A stretch of DNA of 64,000 nt from Octopus sinensis (lineage: Eukaryota). Shown here piece after piece: positions 11,580 to 52,215 of the stretch. Numbering within the stretch: position 1 is the stretch's first letter; each line of letters opens with the position of its first letter. A model generated the notes under the pieces. That model saw nothing but the letters and a program-made list of their open reading frames with translations. It ran no database searches and was not told where the DNA came from. Where the stretch lies: assembly GCF_006345805.1 (NCBI RefSeq), contig NC_043009.1, positions 34,534,001 to 34,598,000 on the forward strand, written 5' to 3'. The position numbers and the translations under genes are program-made.

Positions 11580-13385
11580 TCGCAACCGATGTGCTCGCGA
11601 CGAGATTGGTCTGGGACCAAAGCGCAAAGATTGCATTTTCAGAGCTAAGGCGTGTGCTCTAAAAAGTGAGGGAACGAAAGCTGCTCAATTGGCCCCAATG
11701 GCAGAGGTGCAACGTGGTTATAGGTGGACCAAAATGGGTGCACGGTACTCGAGTCCAAACAGATGTGTGCAGTATTTAAGCTGCACTTCGCTCAACTCTT
11801 TTAAACGAATGACAGTCCGGAACGCAGGATGGACTTCAGTGCCTACCTTGATAGCGTTCCACGACTCACGGCAAGAAAAGTAGAGCTTTGCGGGATGTGA
11901 TGATGGGCTGCAAGGTATGAATGGTCTACCAGACGAGCTTTGATTTTATATGCCAGATCTGTCTGGCTGCTTTTAGGAAATATTTACTGCAATTGGCAAC
12001 AGAACAAGAAAACTTCTAGTTCTGTGAGTAGAGGAGCGGCGGTGCTGCTAAGAAAAGACCCAAACAAGCGGTATAAAATAGAAAATTTTAGGCTTATAAC
12101 GCAGCTGAACGCAGATTTCAGAATTTTAGCTAAGATGTTAGCGAAGAGGTTGGTGCTTATACTCTTCTCTTTACTCTTTTACTTGTTTCAGTCATTTGAC
12201 TGTGGCCATGCTGGAGCACCGCCTTTAGTCGAGCAATTGTAAGCCTAGTACTTATTCTATCGGTCTCTTTTGCTGAACCGCTAATTTACGGGGAAGGATG
12301 AAAGGCAACGTCGACCTCTGCAGAATTTGAACTGGGAACGTAATGACCGACACATTTTGTCCGACGTGCTAAAGATTCCGCCAGCTCGCTGCCTTATGGT
12401 CAAAGAACTGATTGGTGATGTACAAATACGCGCCATCTCAAGCAGATCTGTCCCTGGCAACCTCTAACCCATGCGATACATCATAGACATGGTGGGTAAA
12501 GAAGCTGGAATGGATGGAGCCCTGATAAATTTGGATCGATCAAAAACCTTCAATACGGTCGGTCCGCAATGCATGGTGGTTGGTTTCGGCCCCGTTTTCC
12601 TTGGCTGGATTACCGCAATGTACAACGAGATCCGTCAAAGGTTTCCCCCTCTCGTCTTTTCTGTATGTGTAGGCTGTAGGACTACCACTACAGAAACTGG
12701 AGCCGTTGAGAAACATCTCGCGCAAACTAGAACGTGGGAGAACTTTGTCGGTATATGCGGACGACATTACAGTCATTGTGTTGAACACTAGACATAAAGG
12801 GCATTTTAGGGCATACACTAGGCATACAAGCCCTGACAGAAGCAAACATTAACCAAGAAAAGTCAGGGGACCCACCACTCAGCACCTGAAGTGGCGGGTC
12901 TATACCTTCCAATAATGTCATGGGACACTGGAAGGAGGAACCGGTTAACTTGTTCGAGGCCTGGTTTAGTCTGGATTTCCGAGTGGAGAAGAACTGGGAC
13001 GAAGTGACGGGTAGGGTAGCCAGTCTCATTCAGGAATGGGCCGAGAGAAAGCTTTCTCTGAAAGGCCGGAGAGAGGTGGCAAATGTATACATCGCCTACG
13101 TTGTATATTACCACTTGACCATCGTTCTTTGCTGCAGTTTACACCTGACAAAACGAGTGCATAGTCTTCCGCTTTTTGTGGAAAGGACGCATTCCTCTGG
13201 TCAGACTCTCCATTTGTTGCCAACACCCGCTGAATGGGCATGCCGTGGCTGCTGATGCGCAGACATGAGCTGACGGTGAGCAGCCGTTGGTGAGACTCGC
13301 TCTGCCGCAGCTCGTCTGTTTGACTGAGCTGCAGCCCTGGATCAAACGTAGACCGAAACGGCGTCTGGCACCTAGAGTATTGTAA
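11580..13385 (+). mobile_element. Decayed L1/Tx1-clade LINE (RT region), interrupted by SINE fragments
   Basis: ENFRLITQLNADFRILAKMLAKRL; GALINLDRSKTF; YADDITVIV; WAERKLSLKGRREVAN; many frameshifts. Confidence 0.8.
12160..12395 (-). mobile_element. Chimeric SINE insertion: family B head joined to family A tail
   Basis: 12160-12293 matches family A 3' part; 12294-12395 matches family B head. Confidence 0.75.
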
Positions 13386-15017: not shown

Positions 15018-18000
15018 ATGGACACCCTTGACACCATTCTGAGAACTGAGTTCACCAAGAATGACAAAAAGGATAGAGAAAGCCCTCCCCCGGACCCAGC
15101 GATCCCTCAAAAGAACAAAACCAAAGCCATAACAGAGAGGCCTGCAAACGAAGGAAACAACGATACTGGTCCTGTTTCCAACAAGTTAGAAGACGAAAGA
15201 GTTGAGAGGGCCGAAAAAGGCAAAGAAAAACATAAAACCGACAAAACAAAAGCTGTCAGAAACAAAGAAGTGCGTGGAATAAAAGAAAGGGAAAATGAAG
15301 AAACAACAAAAGATGTTGGGACGAAGCAGAAAACCCCCAACAAAAGCCACTGGAGTTAAAAAACAAAAGCAGAAGCTTTTGCAAATTTTACCTGCAAGAG
15401 AACTGCCGGCACGGTAATGATGGTGCAAACTGTCAGTTTGCACATCAGAAGCCTTACCAAAACTGCATGGGCCCAAAACAATACTCCCTTCCACGAAGAG
15501 GATAAAAAGAAATGCACCAAAGAAGAAAAAAATGGCACACTGTTTACTCCCCAAAGACGATATGCAGATATAGTGCGTAACCCAACAAACAGCCGGATGT
15601 GGGTAGCAGCTGAACGACAATCTTTTTTGTGCATGGCACAAAAGATTGTCCGGCAGCTGACCTGGCTACAAACACAAACTTGGAACTACACCCACTACCA
15701 CACAAGGCCACCACCACCAATAAATACCGGATAGCCACCACTAACACCAACGCAGACGTCACAAAAATATTTCTTCTAAATATCGCAGGGCTGTTGCACG
15801 TCAACAGTAAAACAAAAATCTCGTTCTTGAGAGAGCTTGCTGCATGCAATCAAGTTCTATGCATAGCACTTGTGGAAACGCATCTTAGACCGGATATAAG
15901 GGATGCAGAAATACCACAATATGTTGTCATACGCTGGGATAGAAAGGAGAGGAGCCATGGTGGAGTTGATGTGTACATCCGAGAGGACCTCACACCTTAG
16001 GTCCTGTTGTCATATTTAAATTCAGTGTGTGACACTCAAATTGTACACATAAGACAACTTAATGTTGTCATATGTACTACATATTGTCCACTGGATGCTC
16101 CAAATCATGCGGGTAAGTTTGAAGACTGCCTAGCAAAGATAGAAGTTCTCACCAAATTGGAACAATACATCAGTGTATTCCTGGGGGGCCAGACACTCCC
16201 AAGAATGGCATACCACCAGCAAGCACAGGCGGATTCCTTACTCCACCTTATCAATGATTCTTTCATGGAGCAAATTGTGTTGCAATCAACCAGGGCAAAT
16301 AATATACTGGATATCTGCTTCACAAACAATACGGACATTATCCATAATGTTAGAGTGACACTGACGTTGGTTTCGGATCACAAATAAACAGAACTATCTA
16401 TGTATGGACCAAAAACCGCTGCAGACGTACAGCCTATACAAAGCACCCAAAATGTCTCCAAACTGAATTTTCATAAAGCAAACTGGAAGTTGATTGAGAA
16501 AGAGATCCTCAAATAGGATTGGCCTAAATGTCTCAAAGCATCAGACATTGACATGAAACACAAACATTTCATGTTCATAATGCAAGCCATACGTGACAAA
16601 TCTGTCCCAGAGCGCAGGGCCAGCATACACAAAAACAGGATCCCTCTGTAAGGAAGATTCTTATGAGACGACGTATTAGAGATTGCGAACTGCCTGAACA
16701 AGCGCCCCAAAAGTGATGAGAAGTCTTTCCTGGAGAGAACGCTGTTGGAGATTGAGAAAAGTCTGCATCAATCTTACGAAAAGGAGAGAGTAGATAAAGG
16801 AACTTGGGTTATAGAAAGTATCAAGTCGAACGCTAAAGCTTTCTTTAAGTTTGCCAAAGAAACAGCCTCAGTACACCACAAGATAGGGCCCCTCTTCCAA
16901 AAAGATGGCCCCTCACAGGAAATCCAATGAGTATAAGTGAAATACTGAACTAACAGTTCCAAAGTGTATTTACTACATCTCTGGGATATAGGCAAGTGAA
17001 CAAACCAGCGGACCTCTTTGCAAATTTACCTGTAACCAAAGAGGTGATAATTGATTATACCAACATTAAAGATGTAACACTGGCCATAGATGAAATTGAC
17101 ACAAACTCAGCTGTTGGCCCTTCTCAAATCGTGCAAACGAGCCCTTGCAAAACCATTGAAGCTTCTTTTTCAGAATCTTCTTGCAAGTGGTAAGTTCCTA
17201 GACAAACTGAAGGAAGGGATAATATGCCGTATCCATAAAGGAGGAGGCAGAGTAGATGCTAAAAATTATATGCCTATCTCTTTAACCCCACATATCAGCA
17301 AAGTCATGGAATGAATAGCCTGCAAGAAACTAATCGCGTTTCTTGAAGAAAATGACTTGCTGATTGACACCCAGTATGGATTTCGACCAGGTAGAAGTTG
17401 CCTGACACAGCTCTTGCAACATTACGACTGGGTGTTAAAACAGCTGCTAAATGACTCAAGTGTGGATGTAATATATCTCGACTTTGCAAAAGCCTTTGAT
17501 AAAGTCAACTGTGGTATATGTCACAAACTGCGTGATCTCGGCATAGTCGGAAAACTTGGAGACTTTCTAAAAGATAGACGTCAGGCAGGGTGGCCAATGT
17601 AGCTACCTCAACGGAAACATAAATAGCAAGTGGTGTTTCATAGGGCATTGTCTTAAGGGCTACTGCTATTCACAGTGGCCCTCTCAGATATATCTTCAGC
17701 TGCTCAGATAACCATCCTTGCTAGCTATGCAGATGACACAAAAGTCTCTCAGACAATACAAAATCTTGGAAATATTGTGCATCTACAACGGGAGTTGGGT
17801 GCAATATACAACTGGGCTGAGGAAAACAACATGCAGTTTAATGCAGGAAAATTCCAAGCCCTGCACTACGAGCACACAAAGCCGAATTACATGCAGACAG
17901 GAATTACATGCAGACAGGATACACTGGCCTGGGAAGAATTGCAATCCCTGAATAAAAATCAGTGTGTGACTTAGGCATTGACATGAACAATGATTTACCT

Positions 18001-18080
18001 TTCCAGGTGCATATTACCAATTTGATAATAAAATGCAGATGGCTAGCTAGATGGATCCTACGAATTTCTGAAACAAGAGA
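15018..18080 (+). mobile_element. Decayed CR1-like LINE: ORF1 with CCCH-like Cys motif, APE endonuclease and RT; 3' end missing
   Basis: CKFYLQENCRHG..CQFAH; IFLLNIAGL..ALVETHL..DRKERSHGGV; QYGFRPGRSCLTQLL; IYLDFAKAFDKV; YADDTK; stops and frameshifts throughout. Confidence 0.88.
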
Positions 18081-19906
18081 AAGATGTAACTGCAGAATTA
18101 AATCAAAATGCCCGGCCCCTGATTTATGCGGGTTAATTAACATAATCTATAAGTGCTCCGTAACCACAGATAATAATAAGTTCTCTTATGTTGGATGCAC
18201 TGTAAATTTTAAACAGAGATTGAATAATCATCTCTCATCTTTTAAATTACGTCATAAGGCTGATAGCACTACTCTTTCTAGTAAAATTTGGGAACTAAAA
18301 AACAATAATATCAAATATAACCTAAATTGGGAATTAATCAGAAGAGCAAAACCCTATAAAAATAGCAGAGTAGGCTGCCAACTTTGCTCCATGGAAGCAT
18401 TTGAAATACTAATGTATAAAAATAATGGAGAAATTCAATTAAACAGCAGAATTGAACTTGGAAATTCTTGTATACATGCTCGGTTTAAGACTCTTAAATA
18501 TTTTAAATGATATTTTAAATCATATCTCAATTGATAACTGTATACTGGAATCATTTTACATAAAATTCATTTTGACTTACATATCACTCCTACTTAGTAT
18601 ATATTTAACTAGAAAGATAAGTTCTAACTAGCTATGATTATAATTTTTCTCTCTCTGATGGTACTATTTGATACTTATTGACTTAAATTATTTATTTGAT
18701 TTATTTCTATTGGACCATATTATTAATAAATTAATTTTATCTCCATTTCTTAGTCTATTTTTTATCCCATTACAAACTTTAGTTAGTTAATTCTCTTAAT
18801 TTCTTTTAAATTTTTAAAATTAATTTCTGCTAATACCAGACCTATAGTAGTGTATTGTGATGTGATATAATTTATCAAAATAAAATAATATAATATAGTG
18901 TAGTGTATTATAGTTTAGTATAATAATAATATAATTGTTTAATTTCATTTAATATTTTCATTTAATAACATTATGTATGTTTTATAGTTTAGTATAATAA
19001 TAATATAATAGTTTAATTTCATTTAAAAACAACCCCATTTTTCTTTCCTTTCTAATGACCTCTTTGTAACCTGACAATCTATTAATAGTAACATTTATAA
19101 ATAAAGAAATAAATTGTTGACCTCAGTTAGAATTTGTTCCAAACAAACTTAGACTTTTTTGTTAGTATCAAATTGTGCCCATCCCCTTAGCTTCCCCTTT
19201 CCTTTCTCTTTGACAGCTTAAATAGCAGTAACTGATTAAATTCCTACCCCCTTCCTCCTCTTTCTGTGATTCTTGAATATTTCATTAACTACCTGAACCA
19301 CTACAATATAAGGCTGTCATTTTTGCTTCTCATTCGGACTCCCTGATATTTTCGCATGATTGTACCCTAAATCCCTCCACAAAACTGGATTACGAACTAT
19401 AAGGACATACAAAAATTTGTAAGTTCTAGACTTTTTCATCAGATCTCCAAAAAAATCGAACTTATCTGCGATTCTTGTTAATTTCAATAACAATCTGTTC
19501 CTCTACACGACATGACAGTCACTATGTTATTACTCAGACTTTCCTCTACATGATGTGGCAGGTACTTTGCCTCTTACTCGGATTTTCAGAAATTTTGCAT
19601 GACTGTATCCGAAAATTTCTTCATACAACTTGATCAAATATTCAATATGAGCTATATGTAGACATGCATAAATTCTATAGGTTTAAAACCTTTCATCTGA
19701 TCTCCATGAATCGAACTTTCTTCAATGCAGTTAATCCTACAACCTCTTTTATATCTACCCCTTTTGATGTTTGGGAATTCTCTGATATGTTTTCGGCTGA
19801 CGAGTACGAGCCATCTGTATTCACTGCATTTTTTGTAGCTTATTAAAGATGTCCTCGTACGAAACGATCGTACCGAGATTTTAATCCATTCTTGTTGCTT
19901 TTTTCC
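18081..19906 (+). mobile_element. 5'-truncated Penelope-like element (Naiad-type GIY-YIG, long 3' UTR, terminal HHR) ending in (TA)n
   Basis: Open CNCRIKSKCP...IIYKC...YVGCT..FKQRLNNH...CQLC..E...LNSRIE...CIH to stop at 18510; HHR at 19791. Confidence 0.85.
19791..19878 (+). ncRNA. Type I hammerhead ribozyme
   Basis: tttcgg CTGACGA gtacgag...ctcgtac GAAA cgatcg TA ccgaga; palindromic stem III ACGATCGT; predicted cut after A19872. Confidence 0.88.
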
Positions 19907-19938
<32 letters not shown>

Positions 19939-42669: not shown

Positions 42670-43947
42670 TTAGGTTGTTCCGAAAATAATGGCCGCTCTA
42701 AGTGTGTTTTGAAACGCAATTTTATCATCGTATTTTAATAATTGATGTATGTATGTTTAATAAATGATGCATGCTCTTAAAAAATGTTCTACTTATTTCA
42801 GACAGAAAACATTCTTGAAGCATAGGCACCCTTAATTATGAACATGACAAAAAAAAGACCTTCGCTTACTTTTCTTGCATGAGTTCAAGCTTGGACACAA
42901 TACCTCCCAAACTGCTGCCAATATCAACAGAGCATGGGGAGAGGGATCCACAAGTGATGGCACAGTACGAAGTTGGTTTCAGAAATTCCGTAGTGGTGAT
43001 GAGAGCCTTGAAGATGAAGAAGGTAGAGGACGGTCATGCAGTCTTGATAATGAACAGTTGAAAGCAATTGTTGAAGAAAACCCAGGTCAAAGTGTCAGAG
43101 AAATATCTCAGGCACTTGGTGTGGGTATTGCGATGGTCTCGCGCAAACTTCAGAAAATTGGTAAGGTGAAAAAGCTCGATAAATGGGTACCAAATGAGCT
43201 CAATGAAAATCAAAAAGTTCAGTGTTTTGAAGTGTGCTCGATGCTCTTTCTGTGAAACACCAATGATCCTTTTCTTTGACCGAATGGTCACTTGTGACGA
43301 AAAGTGGATCCTTTATTATAACCGTAAACGATCAGGTCAATTGCTTGATCGTGATGGGTCCCTCAAGCATTTCCCAAAGCCAAAGTTGCATTAGCAAAAG
43401 ATTATGGTGACTGTCTGGTGGTTTTCAATTGGTGTTGTCCATTGCAGCTTTCTTGAAGCCAATCAGAGCTTTACAGCAGAGGTTTATTGCAATCAACTCA
43501 CTGAAACGCATGCTCACTTGCAAAAAATGAGACCTGCATTGGGGAATCGGCATGGCCCAATTCTGCTCCATGATAATGCAAAGCCACATGTTGCAAGGAT
43601 GATACGGCAGAAACTCACAGACTTGGGATAGGAGACTTTAGCACATCCCCCACATTCTCCTGATCTTTCACCCACTGACTACCATTTTTTAAAGCATTTA
43701 AACACGTTTCTTAGTGATAAAATTTTCAGGTCCAAACCAGAGGCGGAATCAGCTTTCAAAGATTTATTAGCATCAAAGCCAACAAGTTTTTTTTATCAAC
43801 AAGGCAAAAAAAAAATCTCATTGATTGATGGCAAGATGCATAGATGTTCACGGCTCACACTTTGACTAATCAAAAAATTTCTATTGTTAATTTTTCCAGA
43901 ATACGATTATGTATCTGAAATCGGCCATTATTTTCGGAACAACCTAA
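42670..43947 (+). mobile_element. Full-length mariner transposon (~1.28 kb) with disrupted D,D34D-type transposase
   Basis: Perfect 26-bp TIRs ttaggttgttccgaaaataatggccg, TA TSD; WVPNEL, TCDEKW, HDNA and HSPDLSPTDY motifs; stops and frameshifts. Confidence 0.95.
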
Positions 43948-45125: not shown

Positions 45126-47174
45126 TATATATATATAAAGAGAGAGAGAGAGAGAGAGAGAGGAGAAGGCATCACGTTATCAGCCTTTGAGCACAATGAA
45201 TCGGCAGTAAAGGACCACAGAGTTTTGATCTCTGGAGTCGTGATGGAATCATAGGAACACCATCAAGAGAGACACGGCACTCACTACATAGGGGACTAAC
45301 TTTTTGCTAGATTAGCACCAGTGAACACTAACCAGACACTTAATCCAGGCCGTATGGAAAAGATTTTTATAATAATATTTTATATATAGAGATAAGTGTA
45401 TGGACATACATAGGAAGAGCAAGCGTTGAGTTGCTGGTGCTAGTTTAGATTACCGCACGCTGAGTTTTACACCGAAAACTTCCAGCTAACACGGCAATAT
45501 ATGGAGCTGAATGTTTAATGAGTAGAATGTAATACATTTAAACAGGCTTTCATGAATTCTTGGAATTCTCTAATAACCAGTCAGAGTGCGTCTGTTGTGG
45601 AGGATCTGTTATGTTGGAAATAATATGAAAGAAAATGTTTATAGCGTCTTTATGGCGGTCGAGGAGCTTTATGTAAATTAATCAATTTTATCAATAAAAA
45701 TTCATTTACTTTTTAGAGAATTTGAGAAATATAATCAACATTGCAGAAATTAATAGTTCAGTATCTGATCTGTATATCTATATCATTTTAAATTGTGCAT
45801 GGTAGAAAAAAATGATTCTATTTCCATTTTCTATTTAATTTTATAGATTTCATTAAAATTTTTATCTTTGATAACCAAATTACACGAATGCGCACACACA
45901 CGCACAAACACACAGATACACGCACATACACGCACATACTCGAGGCTATAAATTATAGAACTCAATATACAAATGCAGACTGATTTTATACATTATACAT
46001 TATAACTGAAAGTCTCCTAATTCTCAATATACTGAGTTTCACGTTTCGGTTCTTCTAGCTGTTTCCCCTTGAATTATCAGCTGTTTGAATATATTTTTTG
46101 AAATATTATACAAACGTTGTCAATGAAACACGTTTTTTAAAAGAAACCAAGCAAGTGGTATATGTAAATGCAGTTGTATCAAGTTCACGTATTTCATTCC
46201 ATTTATGGCTCTCGTGGGAATACTTCAAAAGTGTTTAAGCTTAAACAAGAGTGGTCACTCTAAGAACTGTCCTTATGAAATTGCGCTGATTACGAAATAT
46301 TTTAACAATGGCAACAACACATATACAGATATACATCCACGCATAGTTCCACTCATTTATATACCTACATACATGAATACATATATACAAATTTCAGTGT
46401 AATCACATAAGTTCAAATTTCTTGGATCAAACTCCTACAGAGGAATCACAATACCTTCCTTTCTCGTCAGTTGATGGATTTACAAACACGGATTTCCACA
46501 GAAACTAGAAAATTATCTCTGGATGCTTTACAAAACACAAACCAGCCGCTCGAAATATTATTATTGCAACTAAGAGTTGTTGTTGCTGACGATGACTTTC
46601 GTGAGTTAATCATTTCTATGATCTCTTTACTGCCTCAAATATAACGCGGTAACAACGTGCTAGGATCAGCATTTCATTTAGATACAGAGGAAGTCTTGGA
46701 ACGTTAATAGATTTAGAGATGCTACTTGTTCAAGCTAAACATAAAGGATTAATAAGGAAATCTGAAGAATCCTGAAAATGAAACATTGCAATCGAACACA
46801 AAGAGAAATTACCTATAACAGGCAATTTCTACACGCTAGGAGACAGTGAAAACGACCGAAAACCACAAAATTCAAGCAATTTCAAAGGGAATGAAAATAT
46901 AAAAACTTTTACCTTGTTTTTACAGTTATACCTATAGGTTTCGGTATTTTTTTTAGTAAATAAAGTAATTTACTAGGCGAATTTTCATCTGTAACCGAGC
47001 CATCCAAGACTAACCTATAATTATGAGACCAATAGCACGTGTTTCATCCTTATATATTATCATTTTTTCAAAACCCACCACACAAGCGCAGTTTCAGTCG
47101 GTAGAAAATGAAAAATGCCGAAACGAACTTTGGAAAGCTAATATCGATACTTATATATATATATAAATATATAT

Positions 47175-47851
47175 ATGTAGTTATACAATTAAGGGCTCCT
47201 AAATAAAGATGCCGAGTGCTGGGAACACAAAAAGGGGATGAGTTTATCGAGAGTGAAAATCAAAAACGTTTACCGATAACTTTAACAACTCAACTACATG
47301 AATAATATTTTTCTATATGAATAATATTTTTGTCTTATGACTTATTCGTCTTTTGTGCTGGGCACCTGGTAGTAAATAATATTACTACCCTTCTTGTTTA
47401 TATTCGCATATCACATGATGGATTTATTCGTAAAATTCTTCCCGGCATGCCCGTGTAAATTTTGCGTCTGCGCAGAGATTTGAAAAGTTAAGATCTGCTA
47501 GTAGTCGGGTTCAACACATAGTCCCACATCGCTGCAGACCTCGATTAAATTTAGGCGACTCGCTGATGAAGCTGGCCTTAGCAAACATATTCTGTGTTTT
47601 GCTAGAAAGAAGCAGAAACCGCGGTACGAGTTGTTAAAGTTATCGGTAAACGTTTTTGATTTTCACTCTCGATAAACTCATCCCCTTTTTGTGTTCCCAG
47701 CACTCGGCATCTTTATTTAGGAGCCCTTAATTGTATAACTACATGAATAATATTTTTCTATATGAATAATATTTTTGTCTTATGACTTATTCGTCTTTTG
47801 TGCTGGGCACCTGGTAGTAAATAATGTTACTACCCTTCTTGTTTATATTCG
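47175..47851 (+). mobile_element. Non-coding HHR-bearing retrozyme/pLTR-like insertion in (TA)n
   Basis: 47175-47291 is the reverse complement of 47628-47744; 47292-47406 directly repeats 47737-47851 (445-bp period); HHR lies between. Confidence 0.85.
47555..47634 (+). ncRNA. Type I hammerhead ribozyme
   Basis: gcgactcg CTGATGA a gct...agc a GAAA ccgcgg TA cgagttgt; palindrome ACCGCGGT; predicted cut after A47626. Confidence 0.88.
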
Positions 47852-47907
<56 letters not shown>

Positions 47908-47909
<2 letters not shown>

Positions 47910-48844
47910 CATTAAGGACTGAACACGAAAAGTGGACAGTCAACATGCTAGATATAGACGTCAAATCGCCATTCACCACAAAAGATTATGTTCTCAGATC
48001 AAACTCAACACAAAACCATAGCAATAAACAAGTGAAAAATATACGAAATACAATAATTACCCATGTACTAAATTAGTTTCAGCTGTTATTTTCCGCAAGG
48101 AAAACTGCAGCCATCATCAGCATGGTCCGTTATAAATGTAATTTGCTGGACTAGATGCAAACACGATACCGAAATATCGCGTGCATGGAGTTCAGCCTAT
48201 TACATTTGAATATATCTCTCAAATGCCTTTACTTTGGCGCGTTGGAACCCGAGAAAACTAGACTGCAGCTAATAATTAGCAGCAGTTAATTTATCGGTTA
48301 GAGAACATATTTATTTATATAAAATTAATTAAGGGTAGAAATTGATATTTATCAATTAAGACCAGTGGTCTAGCATATTAAAAAAGAATCCGAAGATTAA
48401 AATATTTATATTAATTAATGAATTAATTTTATATAAATAAATATGTTCTCTAACCGATAAATTAACTGCTGCTAATTATTAGCAGCAGGTAATTATTGGG
48501 TAATTATTGTAATTATTGTATTTCGTATATTTTTCACTTGTTTATTGCTATGGTTTTGTGAAACTAATTTAGTACATGGGTACAGCTGAAACTAATTTAG
48601 TACATGGGTAATTATTGTATTTCGTATATTTTTCACTTGTTTATTGCTATGGTTTTGTGTTGAGTTTGATCTGAGAACATAATCTTTTGTGGTGAATGGC
48701 GATTTGACGTCTATATCTAGCATGTTGACTGTCCACTTTTCGTGTTCAGTCCTTAATTGGTATATATAATATTTTAATCTTCGGATTCTTTTTTAATATG
48801 CTAGACCACTGGTCTTAATTGATAAATATCAATTTCTACCCTTA

Positions 48845-48853
<9 letters not shown>
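47908..48853 (-). mobile_element. HHR-bearing non-coding insertion with multiple inverted copies, in (TA)n
   Basis: 47908-48085 inverted at ~48582-48760; 48271-48408 inverted in two pieces at 48421-48480 and 48768-48853. Confidence 0.82.
48061..48125 (-). ncRNA. Type I hammerhead ribozyme
   Basis: Minus strand: ccatg CTGATGA t ggctg...cagct GAAA ctaatttag TA catgg. Confidence 0.85.
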
Positions 48854-48918
<65 letters not shown>

Positions 48919-48921
<3 letters not shown>

Positions 48922-51302
48922 ATCAAAATAAAACATGATGCGAAGGATTCAGCGGTACATATGTTTCGGGCCTTTATTAGACAGATTTATAACAATGCAT
49001 AATGTATGTCTGTGGCCTTCTTCAGCCGCGCACAACAGCTTCCACAAGGACATGTGTTACATCAAAAATTCTTGGTGGGGATGCAAATCCTCTCATTCGC
49101 GTACGACATAATGCGCAGCAGCATAGAATTGAAGCGTCCATCTCTTTCTTCTCTCAATGTAGAATGAGGAAAATTTGGATGTTGAAGTAATGTAAATAAA
49201 TAAATACATATATAGACGTGAAGATGGAGGGGCGAGAATTCAGGACGAGGGATAAAAAATGTATAAAAAGTGTAAGTATAGAAAAATATAAAAATGTAGA
49301 GCATAAAGATATAAAGAGATATAAGGAGATGTAAAGGGGGTATAAAGAATATAAAGAAATATAAAGAAATATAAATAAATGTAAAGGCATAAGGTTGTAA
49401 AGTAAAAATAGAAATAGAAATAAAAGTAAAAGTAAAAAGTAAAAAAATAAAGATAGGAATAAACATGATAAAAATGTAAAAAAATATAAAAAAATATAAA
49501 AAAATATAAAGATAAGGGATGTATAGAGGTTACGGACCAAACATGGTGGTCAGGAGATTGATAAAATTTAGTTGTAGAAGCTTTGGGTGTCAATAAATCA
49601 ACAGTTTCGTCTGGGGACCTAATGTGTTGTAAATCGGAGCTGTTGAGCGTTTAATCTGGTTCTTTGAATTAATTGGTCATCTAGTACATACATACCATCA
49701 TGGATACACACACCCATATACACGCGTACATATACGCCTCCAAGCCTATAAGCATACACACGCACTCGCGTGTAAACATGGACATAAACACACACACACC
49801 CACACGCACGCGCGTACATATACATACATACAACAGAATATCCGCATGTATACACGGACACTATACGTGTACACACCCATATGTACATACGTGCGCCCAT
49901 CCCTACATACACATACGCATATGCCCACGCTTCCAGGTTTAGATATAAGATATTAAAGGATGTATATAAGAACGTATGTAAAGAATCACGCACTCACGTC
50001 TACACGTGCACGCACACACGGCTGTGTGTCCATATGTGCGTGCACATATACACTTACATACACACACAGAGACATACGCGCATATGGGTATAGCTATAAG
50101 ATATTAAAAGATGTATACAAATAGGTGTAAACATATGAATATAAGAAAACATGTAAAAAAGAAATACGGGGTATGTACATCCAGACGTAGATGTTTACTC
50201 GTACATATGTACATATATGTATACGTATACATACGTACACGGACGCTCGTATAATCATAAAGTGGATCCATAGGTAAGTAAATAAGGGATAAGCAAAAGA
50301 AAATAGACATATATAGAGATGTAAAGCGATAAGTTAGGGGTAAGAATGAGGGTAAGGGTAAAAATTAGAAATAAAAGTAAGAAATACAGTATAAAATAAG
50401 AAATACAATGTAATAGTTAGAAATGAAATATAAAAATTATAAAAATTATAAGAGTTAAGGTAAGGGATGAAAATAAAAATGAGAATAAATGGAAGTAGAA
50501 TAAAAGTAAAAATAAAAGTAAAAATAAAAATAAAATAAAATAAGATAAAAATATAATTTGGTAAAGTTTAACATGAGAAGAAGGTGGTTGAAAGTTAGAG
50601 GTGTGTGTTAAAGGTGCCCACGTAGGGGCGGGCGGGGGGAACTGAAAATTGGAAGGGTGGGAAGTGGAGTTTGGCGGTGTGCGTTCAACATCCTAGTTAG
50701 AAATGTGAAAGGGTATAGATATAGGGAAATAAAGAGACTATATAGGAAGGATATGGGTGTAGGAGAAGAAATATGTAGGGAAAAGAAGTCATATATGGGA
50801 GACAAAATCTGTATATATAGGAGGAAAATGCAGGGAAACATATATGCACATACACACACCCACACACACACACACACACGCACACACACACATATATATA
50901 TATATATATACATATACGTACACATATGTGCACATACATATATATACGCACACATATACGCATATACACGCACTTATAGGAAAGCGGGATGTGCTGGAGC
51001 CGACAGGTTGCACCGGGTGGGAGGAAATGCATGGGGGAGTTGGGTAAACCTAAGCTTTGTAGTATTTGAAAGTATTAATAAGTTTGTGTATACAGGATGG
51101 TTTGAACTCTGACCTTTTGTTAATAAGATTGTGTTTGTCTTTGAATTTCAAGATGTTCAGGAGTTCTACACAACATAGTTGGCATCCTGCTCTATTATTT
51201 AAATAAGGTGCAGCTGATCCGATGATGGACCACCTGAGTTTGAAGCCTATGCATTTGTCTTTTAATTCCCAAATTCTTTTAGAAAGGGAGGTGCTGTTAG
51301 CC
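48919..51302 (-). mobile_element. 5'-truncated Penelope-like element (Naiad-type GIY-YIG C-terminus, ~2.1-kb low-complexity 3' UTR, terminal HHR), (TA)n both sides
   Basis: 51301-51050 translates ANSTSLSKRIWELKDK...CQLCCVE...LINKRSEFKPSCIH...KYYKA*, homologous to 18081-18510; not in ORF track. Confidence 0.85.
48952..49029 (-). ncRNA. Type I hammerhead ribozyme
   Basis: Minus strand: gcgg CTGAAGA a ggcc...ggcc c GAAA catatg TA ccgc; palindrome ACATATGT. Confidence 0.82.
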
Positions 51303-51303
51303 T

Positions 51304-51370
<67 letters not shown>

Positions 51371-51974
51371 GGGTAATATAAATTTTTACAAATTTCACTA
51401 CCAGTGGCCTAGCATGTATAAAATGTCAATAGACGACATATTATTCAATATAAAATTTTGTGGTTTTCGGTCGTTTTGACTGTCTCCTAGCGTGTAGAAA
51501 TCGCCTGTTATAATTAATTTCTCTTTGTGTTTAAATGCATTAATCAAATTAATATTCAATTTTTCCCCCTTATTATTTTAAATTAAAATTTAAATAGTTA
51601 TGTTCTCTAACTGGCAAAATTTACTGCAGAGAATTATTTCCGGTAGATTGGCGCGCCTAAACGACATTTTTGAAAAAGTAACCCCAATTGTATACATGTT
51701 CAATCTCATGCGGACGTCTCGTGTATAGTTCTGTAAATTATACTTGCTAAGACTATCACACTGACGAGTTGCGGATAATTACGTAAATGATTACGTAAGC
51801 ATTAACAACGAAACCTGGTTTGTGATTAATCTATATTTTGTATCTTTTCCTTTGTCGTGCTCGTTTACGTTCTGGTGTTAGCTAAATTTCCTTGAGAACA
51901 TTCCTTTCTTAATGGTAAGACCATAGTGGATCTTCTTCTAACATAATGGATGTCCACTTACAGGTCATTCCTTG

Positions 51975-52026: not shown

Positions 52027-52096
52027 GGTCCCGGTTGAGTCGGGGTTAACCACAGTAAATAAGGTACTCAATACATAACAGAGTAAATTAATTTAT

Positions 52097-52209
52097 TATA
52101 TAGAAGGAGCTTCTACAGGACTAGAACTGTTTCATTCAAAAGAAATCATCAGGAAGCTCCTGATGATTTCTTTTGAATGAAACAGTTCTAGTCCTGTAGA
52201 AGCTCCTTC

Positions 52210-52215
<6 letters not shown>
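52097..52215. ncRNA. Palindrome made of two back-to-back type I hammerheads
   Basis: Minus strand 52158-52108: agcttc CTGATGA tttc tttt gaat GAAA cag ttctagtc ctg TA gaagct; same motif on plus strand at 52155-52204. Confidence 0.8.

Follow-up and report, generated by a model that had tools for sequence, protein, structure and literature searches.

The described systems that come closest to the insertion reported here are the animal non-LTR retrozymes (Cervera and de la Pena, 2020, PMC7229834; Li, Clavereau and Pollet, 2026, 10.64898/2026.07.22.740005), the Hydra-clade Penelope-like elements (Craig et al., 2021, PMC8557442) and Poseidon PAc of the green anole, studied in vitro by Frangieh et al. 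(2024, PMC11167929). For the retrozymes, a life cycle has been proposed in which a Penelope-like reverse transcriptase copies a circle in rolling fashion (PMC7229834; 10.64898/2026.07.22.740005), the circular template being, in the discussion of PMC7229834, a proposal rather than something shown at the insertion step. PMC8557442 lists as an open question how the tandem and inverted insertions of Penelope-like elements, with a tail on one side, come about. PAc in vitro cuts and extends both DNA strands, starting at two internal RNA sites, and its insertion is unaffected in hammerhead mutants (PMC11167929). The literature already covers retrozymes, their circles and the Penelope-like link, as well as inverted arms, a tail on one side only and a pair of internal start sites.

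Here we describe one insertion in the window, by which we mean the whole 64,000-nt stretch of DNA that was analyzed, together with the family to which it belongs in the host genome. We put a probability of roughly 0.6 on the following reading: the focal copy is an insertion of a non-coding 445-nt hammerhead repeat family, with a (TA)n target, two outward arms, fixed starts and one haplotype, and is likely a retrozyme copied by a Hydra-clade Penelope-like protein from circular monomer RNA, primed once per DNA end.

Results

The focal copy and its family

The focal copy is flanked by (TA)n on both sides (Table 1), and its layout is as an earlier note, made from the sequence of this DNA, had described it, with an inverted arm, a 445-nt period and a hammerhead: the arm at 47175-47291 matches the reverse complement of 47628-47744 without a difference (117 nt, 100%), and a direct repeat links 47292-47410 with 47737-47855 (119 nt, 98%, 445 spacing). 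We numbered the unit c1-c445, with c1 at 47627. The predicted cut after A47626 and the inner end of the inverted arm at 47628 both lie where they had been placed, and un-inverting the arm does give 1.5 tandem units (c2-c110 + c111-c445 + c1-c229). A private variant of the inverted arm, at c51, is present in the forward arm too.

Table 1. Parts of the focal copy and its target, in positions of the window.
Feature	Position	Strand	Basis
Left (TA)n target tract	47152..47174	.	sequence
Inverted "A arm", from its outer (3') end at c118 to its inner (5') end at c2	47175..47291	-	
Forward "B arm", c111 through a full 445-nt lap to c225-c229 (outer 3' end, into TA)	47292..47855	+	
Type I hammerhead motif; cores 47563-47569 and 47615-47619; predicted cut after 47626	47554..47635	+	
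Helix predicted to pair c65-c77 with c174-c184, around start site A (c111 = 47737)	47691..47810	+	prediction
Hairpin c187-c208, directly upstream of start site B	47813..47834	+	
Stretch of 111-119 nt from start site A to start site B	47738..47855	+	
Right (TA)n target tract	47856..47907	.	sequence

The unit represents a young, dispersed, non-coding family with hundreds of units in the 2.7-Gb host genome. A 16-nt core had 219 exact matches there and its reversed control 0, a contrast well outside what chance would give; a second subfamily pattern had 63, three arm-end patterns had 81, 86 and 71, and for the 445-nt family itself at least 177 matches came from the 40 candidates that were scored out of 962. 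Our census was built from 203 non-redundant loci, with 9 of the 71 places from one arm-end pattern (71 matches) left out of the locus set, and 201 of them were parsed by jumping alignment on both strands; L239 and L244 were without a usable match, and dropping L289 as a duplicate of L254 gave 200 insertions. These comprise 325 arms, with 125 insertions two-armed, their 3' ends outward, and 75 one-armed. The insertions are spread over many contigs as independently inserted copies, and their outer ends enter TATA/ATAT in 319 of 325 arms (97 of 102 for arms not found via an end pattern). Any target-site duplication would be hidden within the (TA)n. At least two laps are present in 47 of the 325 arms, the longest having 15.6 in a locus set biased to long copies, which bears out the earlier note as to copies of more than unit length.

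Its view of the unit as retrozyme-like and non-coding held up as well, with no ORF (the longest stop-free frame has 67 codons), a hammerhead per unit and dispersed tandem copies. The arrays are pure unit arrays with no LTR-type organization, the 2-kb bin around the focal copy has 34% GC, and the insertion signature that PMC8557442 gives for Penelope-like elements is present: partial tandems, an adjoining inverted 5'-truncated copy, a tail at one end and a microsatellite target. On sequence grounds the 445-nt family is a new member of the animal non-LTR retrozymes that has a Penelope-type insertion signature. A hidden longer element was sought through common flanking sequence and rejected, the matches being other repeats across TA tracts.

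Related non-coding hammerhead families were seen at L340:8170-8725, L395:6630-7457, L208:3830-4374, L206:3120-3760, L174, L102 and L034; they are 70-80% alike, about 490 nt long (the period in L395 is 492) and have their B end at +227 to +235, and the one in L340 has the inverted-plus-forward layout of the focal copy. A hairpin similar to c187-c208 is retained in such families (L340, L395). The window itself holds further elements. Directly beside the focal copy, at 47908-48867, is an element with nested inverted arms between TA tracts, which has a relative in L398, a hammerhead-like motif at 48120 (-) and an end about 150 nt past its cut. Another hammerhead-like motif, with a GTT triplet, lies at 51761-51830 (+), and a short palindromic insert at 52080-52210 carries CTGATGA..GAAAC on the minus strand. 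An ORF fragment at 42848-43255 (+) presumably resembles the N-terminus of a mariner/SETMAR-type transposase, and fragments at 15614-16387 (+) and 11904-13255 (+) are, we take it, like the endonuclease and reverse transcriptase regions of non-LTR retrotransposons.

The hammerhead motif

By direct reading, the 5' strand of stem I ends at 47562 and is followed by CTGATGA (47563-47569), a long stem II that has an A.A pair at its base (10.1-11.1 position) and is otherwise paired, GAAAC (47615-47619), a palindromic loop CGCG, GTA (47624-47626) and the 3' strand of stem I (47627-47635; 9 bp, G-U included). The motif thus has the CUGANGA and GAAA cores, the NUH triplet and the open stem I of type I. 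An extension of stem I is predicted over c1-c20 / c360-c381, as a 19-bp helix. Rfam detected no hammerhead at the gathering score in the whole window, nor did 47450-47750 give one at E<=10. Shuffled sequences fold about as stably as the motif does at minimum energy (z -0.79; whole unit -1.49), so the ribozyme call is founded on core motifs and covariation and not on folding energy.

Full hammerhead motifs number 289, in 129 insertions. Core pair 3-8 is CG in 125 of 146 insertions, UG in 12, UA in 9 and CA in 0; the third pair of stem II is UA in 112, CG in 23 and CA in 9; and position 17 is A in 91, U in 32 and C in 26 of 149 insertions, and never G. Loop 3 differs among subfamilies, yet remains palindromic or nearly so. 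As aligned, the change from C3-G8 to U3-A8 is a compensatory one in the predicted ribozyme core, with the proviso that the covarying changes probably have a single origin each and are hence few and not independent events. A U3.G8 hammerhead core is expected to cut poorly, and the U3.G8 subfamily of 12 insertions has spread in spite of its weakened core. Taken together, the conserved core and the C3-G8 / U3-A8 covariation are an indirect sign that self-cleavage may occur. Judged by PMC4209133 and established hammerhead chemistry, the predicted ribozyme of the 445-nt unit appears to be designed for dimer action in tandem RNA and for staying quiet as a monomer.

Within arrays the sequence across the cut is unbroken in 300 passes, its variation being mainly subfamily haplotype and scattered errors, a pattern more in keeping with a template closed into a circle by ligation, or with a multimer left uncut, than with imprecise jumps. 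Sloppy template jumping at the cut was accordingly rejected, there being no systematic indels across these passes. Contigs from four runs (of a type that was guessed and is possibly DNA) cover 24-28 of 30 bins, and one of them spans the 445-nt joint, although contigs cannot reveal circles; among the listed holders of the unit there were no RNA records.

Two fixed start sites

Outer ends of arms fall at three positions of the unit, c111 (90 arms), c222 (103) and c230 (66). We classed ends at c103-c150 as A, a class including about 11 ends parsed at c127-c146 that may represent over-extension of the alignment into TA, and ends at c210-c236 as B. The 125 two-armed insertions then comprise 101 A+B pairs, two B+B, one A+A and 21 with one end elsewhere, mostly at c84-c90. 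The partner of an arm found by pattern is unselected: 70 of 72 A-anchored arms were matched by a B arm, and 70 of 85 B-anchored arms by an A arm (13 other, 2 B). That A and B ends lie on opposite arms suggests that the two ends of the cut DNA use separate RNA sites for priming, and the inversion through priming from both DNA ends that had been put forward for the focal copy is supported by these 101 of 125. Both sites bear 4-5 nt of TA-like sequence. TA microhomology alone was rejected as what chooses the start, in that the TA-like words at c124, c133, c143, c198 and c406 are seldom or never ends.

Of the 115 inner junctions, 76 overlap by 0-3 nt, 7 overlap by 4-6 nt and 32 contain inserted bases. 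Could the inverted arm have formed by fold-back self-priming of the cDNA, with no second priming on RNA? Such a process has been proposed for the palindromic junctions and head-to-head repeats of rotifer Penelope elements (PMC3846280), it would also yield identical haplotypes in both arms, and some junctions here are nearly mirror images (e.g., L155, L132). It is nevertheless contradicted by 19 of the 101 pairs, which are non-nested, each arm having at least 30 nt absent from the other, and it is rejected for those 19. Moreover, the longer arm can be either one (A in 31, B in 60), inner ends outside the cut window are no closer than chance (14 vs. 13.1), and the different fixed sites at the two outer ends would be left unexplained. 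We consider fold-back very improbable as the general source of the inverted arm.

One haplotype per insertion

Substitutions separate the units of one arm by 0.28%, those of an insertion's two arms also by 0.28%, and those of different insertions by 3.3%. At common polymorphic sites, 43 of 52 arm pairs are identical, as against 301 of 2630 cross-insertion pairs (11%). In ten insertions, the focal copy (c51) among them, a variant occurs in both arms and in no other sampled insertion, and in five a private variant is present in every pass of both arms (7/7 in L064; 5/5 in L049, L054 and L231; 3/3 in L037). This common haplotype, private variants included, favors a monomer circle as the putative template. 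Mosaic rare variants, present in at least two passes and not in all, number 12 in eight insertions, four of them in L060, and point to DNA-level duplication, mixed templates or assembly error, unlike what a pure monomer circle would give. As a separate observation, the four private variants of L060 occur in two adjacent laps of one arm only, suggestive of a later DNA-level duplication of one unit.

What if the arrays had arisen with no circle, their templates being long linear transcripts that read through homogeneous source arrays, and the hammerhead were incidental? Large clades have one haplotype in common, so that the concordance of arms could stem from a homogeneous source array, and it is only the private variants, which are few, that discriminate. 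That most arms cross the cut, that several insertions have one haplotype and that mosaic variants occur are all compatible with read-through, and RNA that has not been processed is the main substrate of PAc in vitro (PMC11167929). However, the private variants fixed in all passes of both arms in five insertions would need some step that amplifies a single unit, conservation of the catalytic core is accompanied by a compensatory change, and arrays do gain unit-specific changes, as the 129 single-pass variants attest, while family-wide variants seldom segregate inside them. We therefore regard copying from linear read-through transcripts as unlikely, with perhaps a quarter of the weight of belief.

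Inner breakpoints and the predicted cut

Did the inverted arm of the focal copy stop where a ribozyme had cut its template? The earlier note took this breakpoint to be a genomic footprint of ribozyme cutting. Across the family, inner ends are scattered over the entire unit with no enrichment at the cut (c-3..c+5; 5 observed vs. 5.8 expected); six arms end in c444-c3 after base-level refinement, and 173 of the 211 first-pass arms reaching c45 read through the cut (69/86 A, 104/125 B), so that the footprint claim is not sustained. Comparing breakpoints across copies did, on the other hand, reveal an excess beyond the cut: the 45 nt from c444 have 55 stops as against 31.9 expected, and the region before the cut 13 as against 27.7 (p 2e-6, uncorrected, for the second-best region of 445 positions scanned). 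The stop rate ratio after the cut, adjusted for arm length, base composition and predicted pairing, is 2.10 (1.55-2.85) in tests limited to insertions found by end pattern (290 of 325 arms; 267 stops modelled) and to arms of at least 30 nt. This step is present in one-armed and two-armed insertions alike, its peak is at c6-c15 (20 vs. 6.7) and not at c1, and 10 of 101 pairs have the stops of both their arms within c-3..c45, as against 3.5 by permutation. The strongest stop step, c181-c186, is at the 3' edge of another predicted helix (c65-c77 / c174-c184), distant from any ribozyme.

These stops raise the possibility that the template was a linear RNA with a hammerhead-made 5' end, to which the inverted arm ran, an explanation we take seriously while giving it somewhat less than an even chance. 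The focal copy fits classical twin priming from such an RNA, its A arm running from c118 to c2 and its B arm stopping at c111, and both the step past the cut and the joint stops of paired arms speak for it. Yet the cut itself has no excess and most arms cross it on the first pass, and a single linear RNA starting at the cut would require an uncut second hammerhead within the focal copy. Since stem I is predicted over c1-c20 and a stronger step lies at the edge of another helix, stalling accounts for the pile-up as well as run-off from a trimmed cleaved end does. Because the excess is only two-fold, whether the breakpoint of the focal copy matches the predicted cut by chance or as a real stop is about an even question, and so is its place among the arms that stop just after the cut. 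Classical twin priming in which the forward arm halts at the second primer was rejected except for a minority, 12 of 101 pairs (5.9 expected).

Coding Penelope-like elements and the enzyme donor

A coding Penelope-like element with the same terminal repeat would have made the unit an ordinary pseudo-LTR, as the earlier note recognized. We assembled 82 coding-element loci, made up of 50 GIY-YIG loci and 32 found with the window's own GIY-YIG fragment, from 5,029 and 19,731 first-look candidates respectively, and the 445-nt repeat occurs in 0 of the 50 and 0 of the 32. Conversely, in the 201 family loci no coding sequence is joined to an arm, and an ORF with reverse transcriptase plus GIY-YIG is neither within the family nor joined to it: a Neptune-type protein match occurs in 5 of the 201 loci, none within 400 nt, and a match to ORFs of the Hydra loci in 31, six of them within 300 nt and all six across TA tracts. 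The unit might still be a solo or tandem pseudo-LTR of a coding element yet unfound, given that only 82 loci were examined out of so many candidates and that frog retrozymes resemble the pLTRs of known elements (10.64898/2026.07.22.740005). With 0 of 201 loci joined to coding sequence, pure arrays of up to 15.6 units and so short a longest stop-free frame, we judge this quite unlikely, although less so than fold-back.

The 32-locus group has long ORFs with DKT, CxCX5C, CxxC and CxH motifs (e.g., the 845-aa ORF of L393), the motifs by which the Hydra clade is defined in section 11 of PMC8557442; no RWK motif of the Hydra kind turned up in L393, and Pfam did not recognize its Hydra-like ORF at E<=0.01. 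The hammerheads of these coding elements are of the same style, with long stem II and palindromic loop 3. The elements of each group meet (TA)n at a shorter or a longer distance from the cut (+34-43 / +148-157 in one group and +37-42 / +109-111 in the other), and a short and a long end are paired in 6/6 and 4/4 resolvable inverted pairs, the non-focal pairs L385, L325, L326 and L405 having one end unresolved and L181 (ends +119 / +97, doubtful motif) being uncounted. Alignments of the unit or its tail with the Hydra elements examined were mostly within shuffles in 14 comparisons (best 8/200). A Hydra-clade Penelope-like element is the likely donor of the enzyme, and intact Neptune-type elements are present in the host genome too.

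The window contains, at 18079-19908 (+), a 3' fragment of a Hydra-like element, with a GIY-YIG end to 18510, a 1.3-kb 3' UTR and a hammerhead at 19797, which ends in (TA)n 34 nt past the cut and has near-identical copies elsewhere in the host genome with ORFs of 700-1100 aa. Another young Hydra-like family, with 1,488 candidates and with ends either at +37-42 or at +109-111, is represented by a 3' fragment at 48920-51304 (-), which has a 2-kb 3' UTR and a hammerhead at 49025 that has an A.C mismatch at the base of stem II. L321-L335 and L340 have young Neptune-type elements with intact ORFs of 775-883 aa, and a descriptor search found no hammerhead beside most of them.

Discussion

How might an insertion such as the focal copy arise? 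We propose that tandem copies would first be transcribed. The hammerheads would then cut, probably as dimers via the palindromic loop 3, and the monomers would be circularized, steps suggested by the core covariation and by the described retrozymes. The Penelope-like protein would cut both strands of (TA)n, and one 3' end would prime reverse transcription at A and the other at B; we observed the fixed pairing of A with B, and the enzymology is conjectural. Each polymerase would go round the template, covering anything from a fraction of a lap to 15.6 laps, the lengths and the common haplotypes being observed and the circle presumed, and the two cDNA ends would join through the 0-3 nt of microhomology or few inserted bases seen at the junctions. 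A minority of arms would end just past the cut, having met the long stem I helix or having run out at the 5' end of a linear RNA that had been cleaved.

A more specific version is that of double rolling-circle reverse transcription, in which a Hydra-clade Penelope protein, acting as a dimer, brings the two ends of a single cut (TA)n to different fixed sites on a single RNA circle made by the ribozyme. Both polymerases would then lap this circle by strand displacement, and the two products would be joined afterwards. We hold this tentatively, at slightly under even odds. If true, it would explain the tandem repeats, inverted arm and one-sided tail of Penelope-like elements, and it would amount to sequence-level evidence for animal retrozyme transposition via circles.

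A single breakpoint in a focal copy is weak evidence, and the valuable part of this study is the family-wide pattern, because it turns the proposed circle-and-twin-priming cycle into specific predictions for the bench. A young family with hundreds of readable insertions allows these to be sharp: a different start for each DNA end, one RNA per insertion and multiple laps. With a 445-nt RNA and intact candidate ORFs from one genome, these predictions could be put to a published in vitro assay. Neither the strict A+B pairing rule nor the shared private variants were found in the main texts searched, few of them from subscription journals.

In twin priming of L1, an inverted 5' segment is joined at a junction of short microhomology. 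The 445-nt family likewise has an inverted segment and short microhomology at the junction, but here both priming sites are fixed, and the arms overlap and can run many laps. PAc is alike in that both strands are cut and extended, two internal starts delimit the tail, the target is AT-rich and a dimer is predicted (PMC11167929). It differs in that no start-site difference between strands was seen in that study, whereas the two ends almost always use different sites here, and in that its starts are without target homology, whereas sites A and B have their 4-5 TA-like nucleotides (PMC11167929).

Like the animal non-LTR retrozymes, the family is a low-GC tandem repeat that does not code for protein, with a single type I hammerhead in each unit and with dispersed arrays. 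Circles and cleavage have been shown for those retrozymes (PMC7229834; 10.64898/2026.07.22.740005) and are predicted for the 445-nt family. Its 445-nt unit has an unusually long stem II with the basal A.A pair, and its insertions are two-armed, inverted (TA)n insertions with fixed starts; the main text of PMC7229834 is without the word "inverted", and such insertions were not seen in the sections covered of the preprint (10.64898/2026.07.22.740005).

The Hydra-clade elements have a (TA)n target, a type I hammerhead with a palindromic loop 3, an inverted 5'-truncated arm and a tail on just one of the insertion's two ends (PMC8557442), as does the 445-nt family, in which the equivalent of the tail is the A-B segment at 47738..47855. 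In contrast to those elements, the family is without an ORF and without detectable similarity to the two Hydra groups examined, and its tail is 111-119 nt long, as against the 30-40 bp given for the Hydra clade in PMC8557442 and about 74 and about 115-120 nt in the coding elements of the host genome. Those same Hydra-clade coding elements nevertheless follow the A+B rule as the 445-nt family does, in 10 of 10 resolvable pairs.
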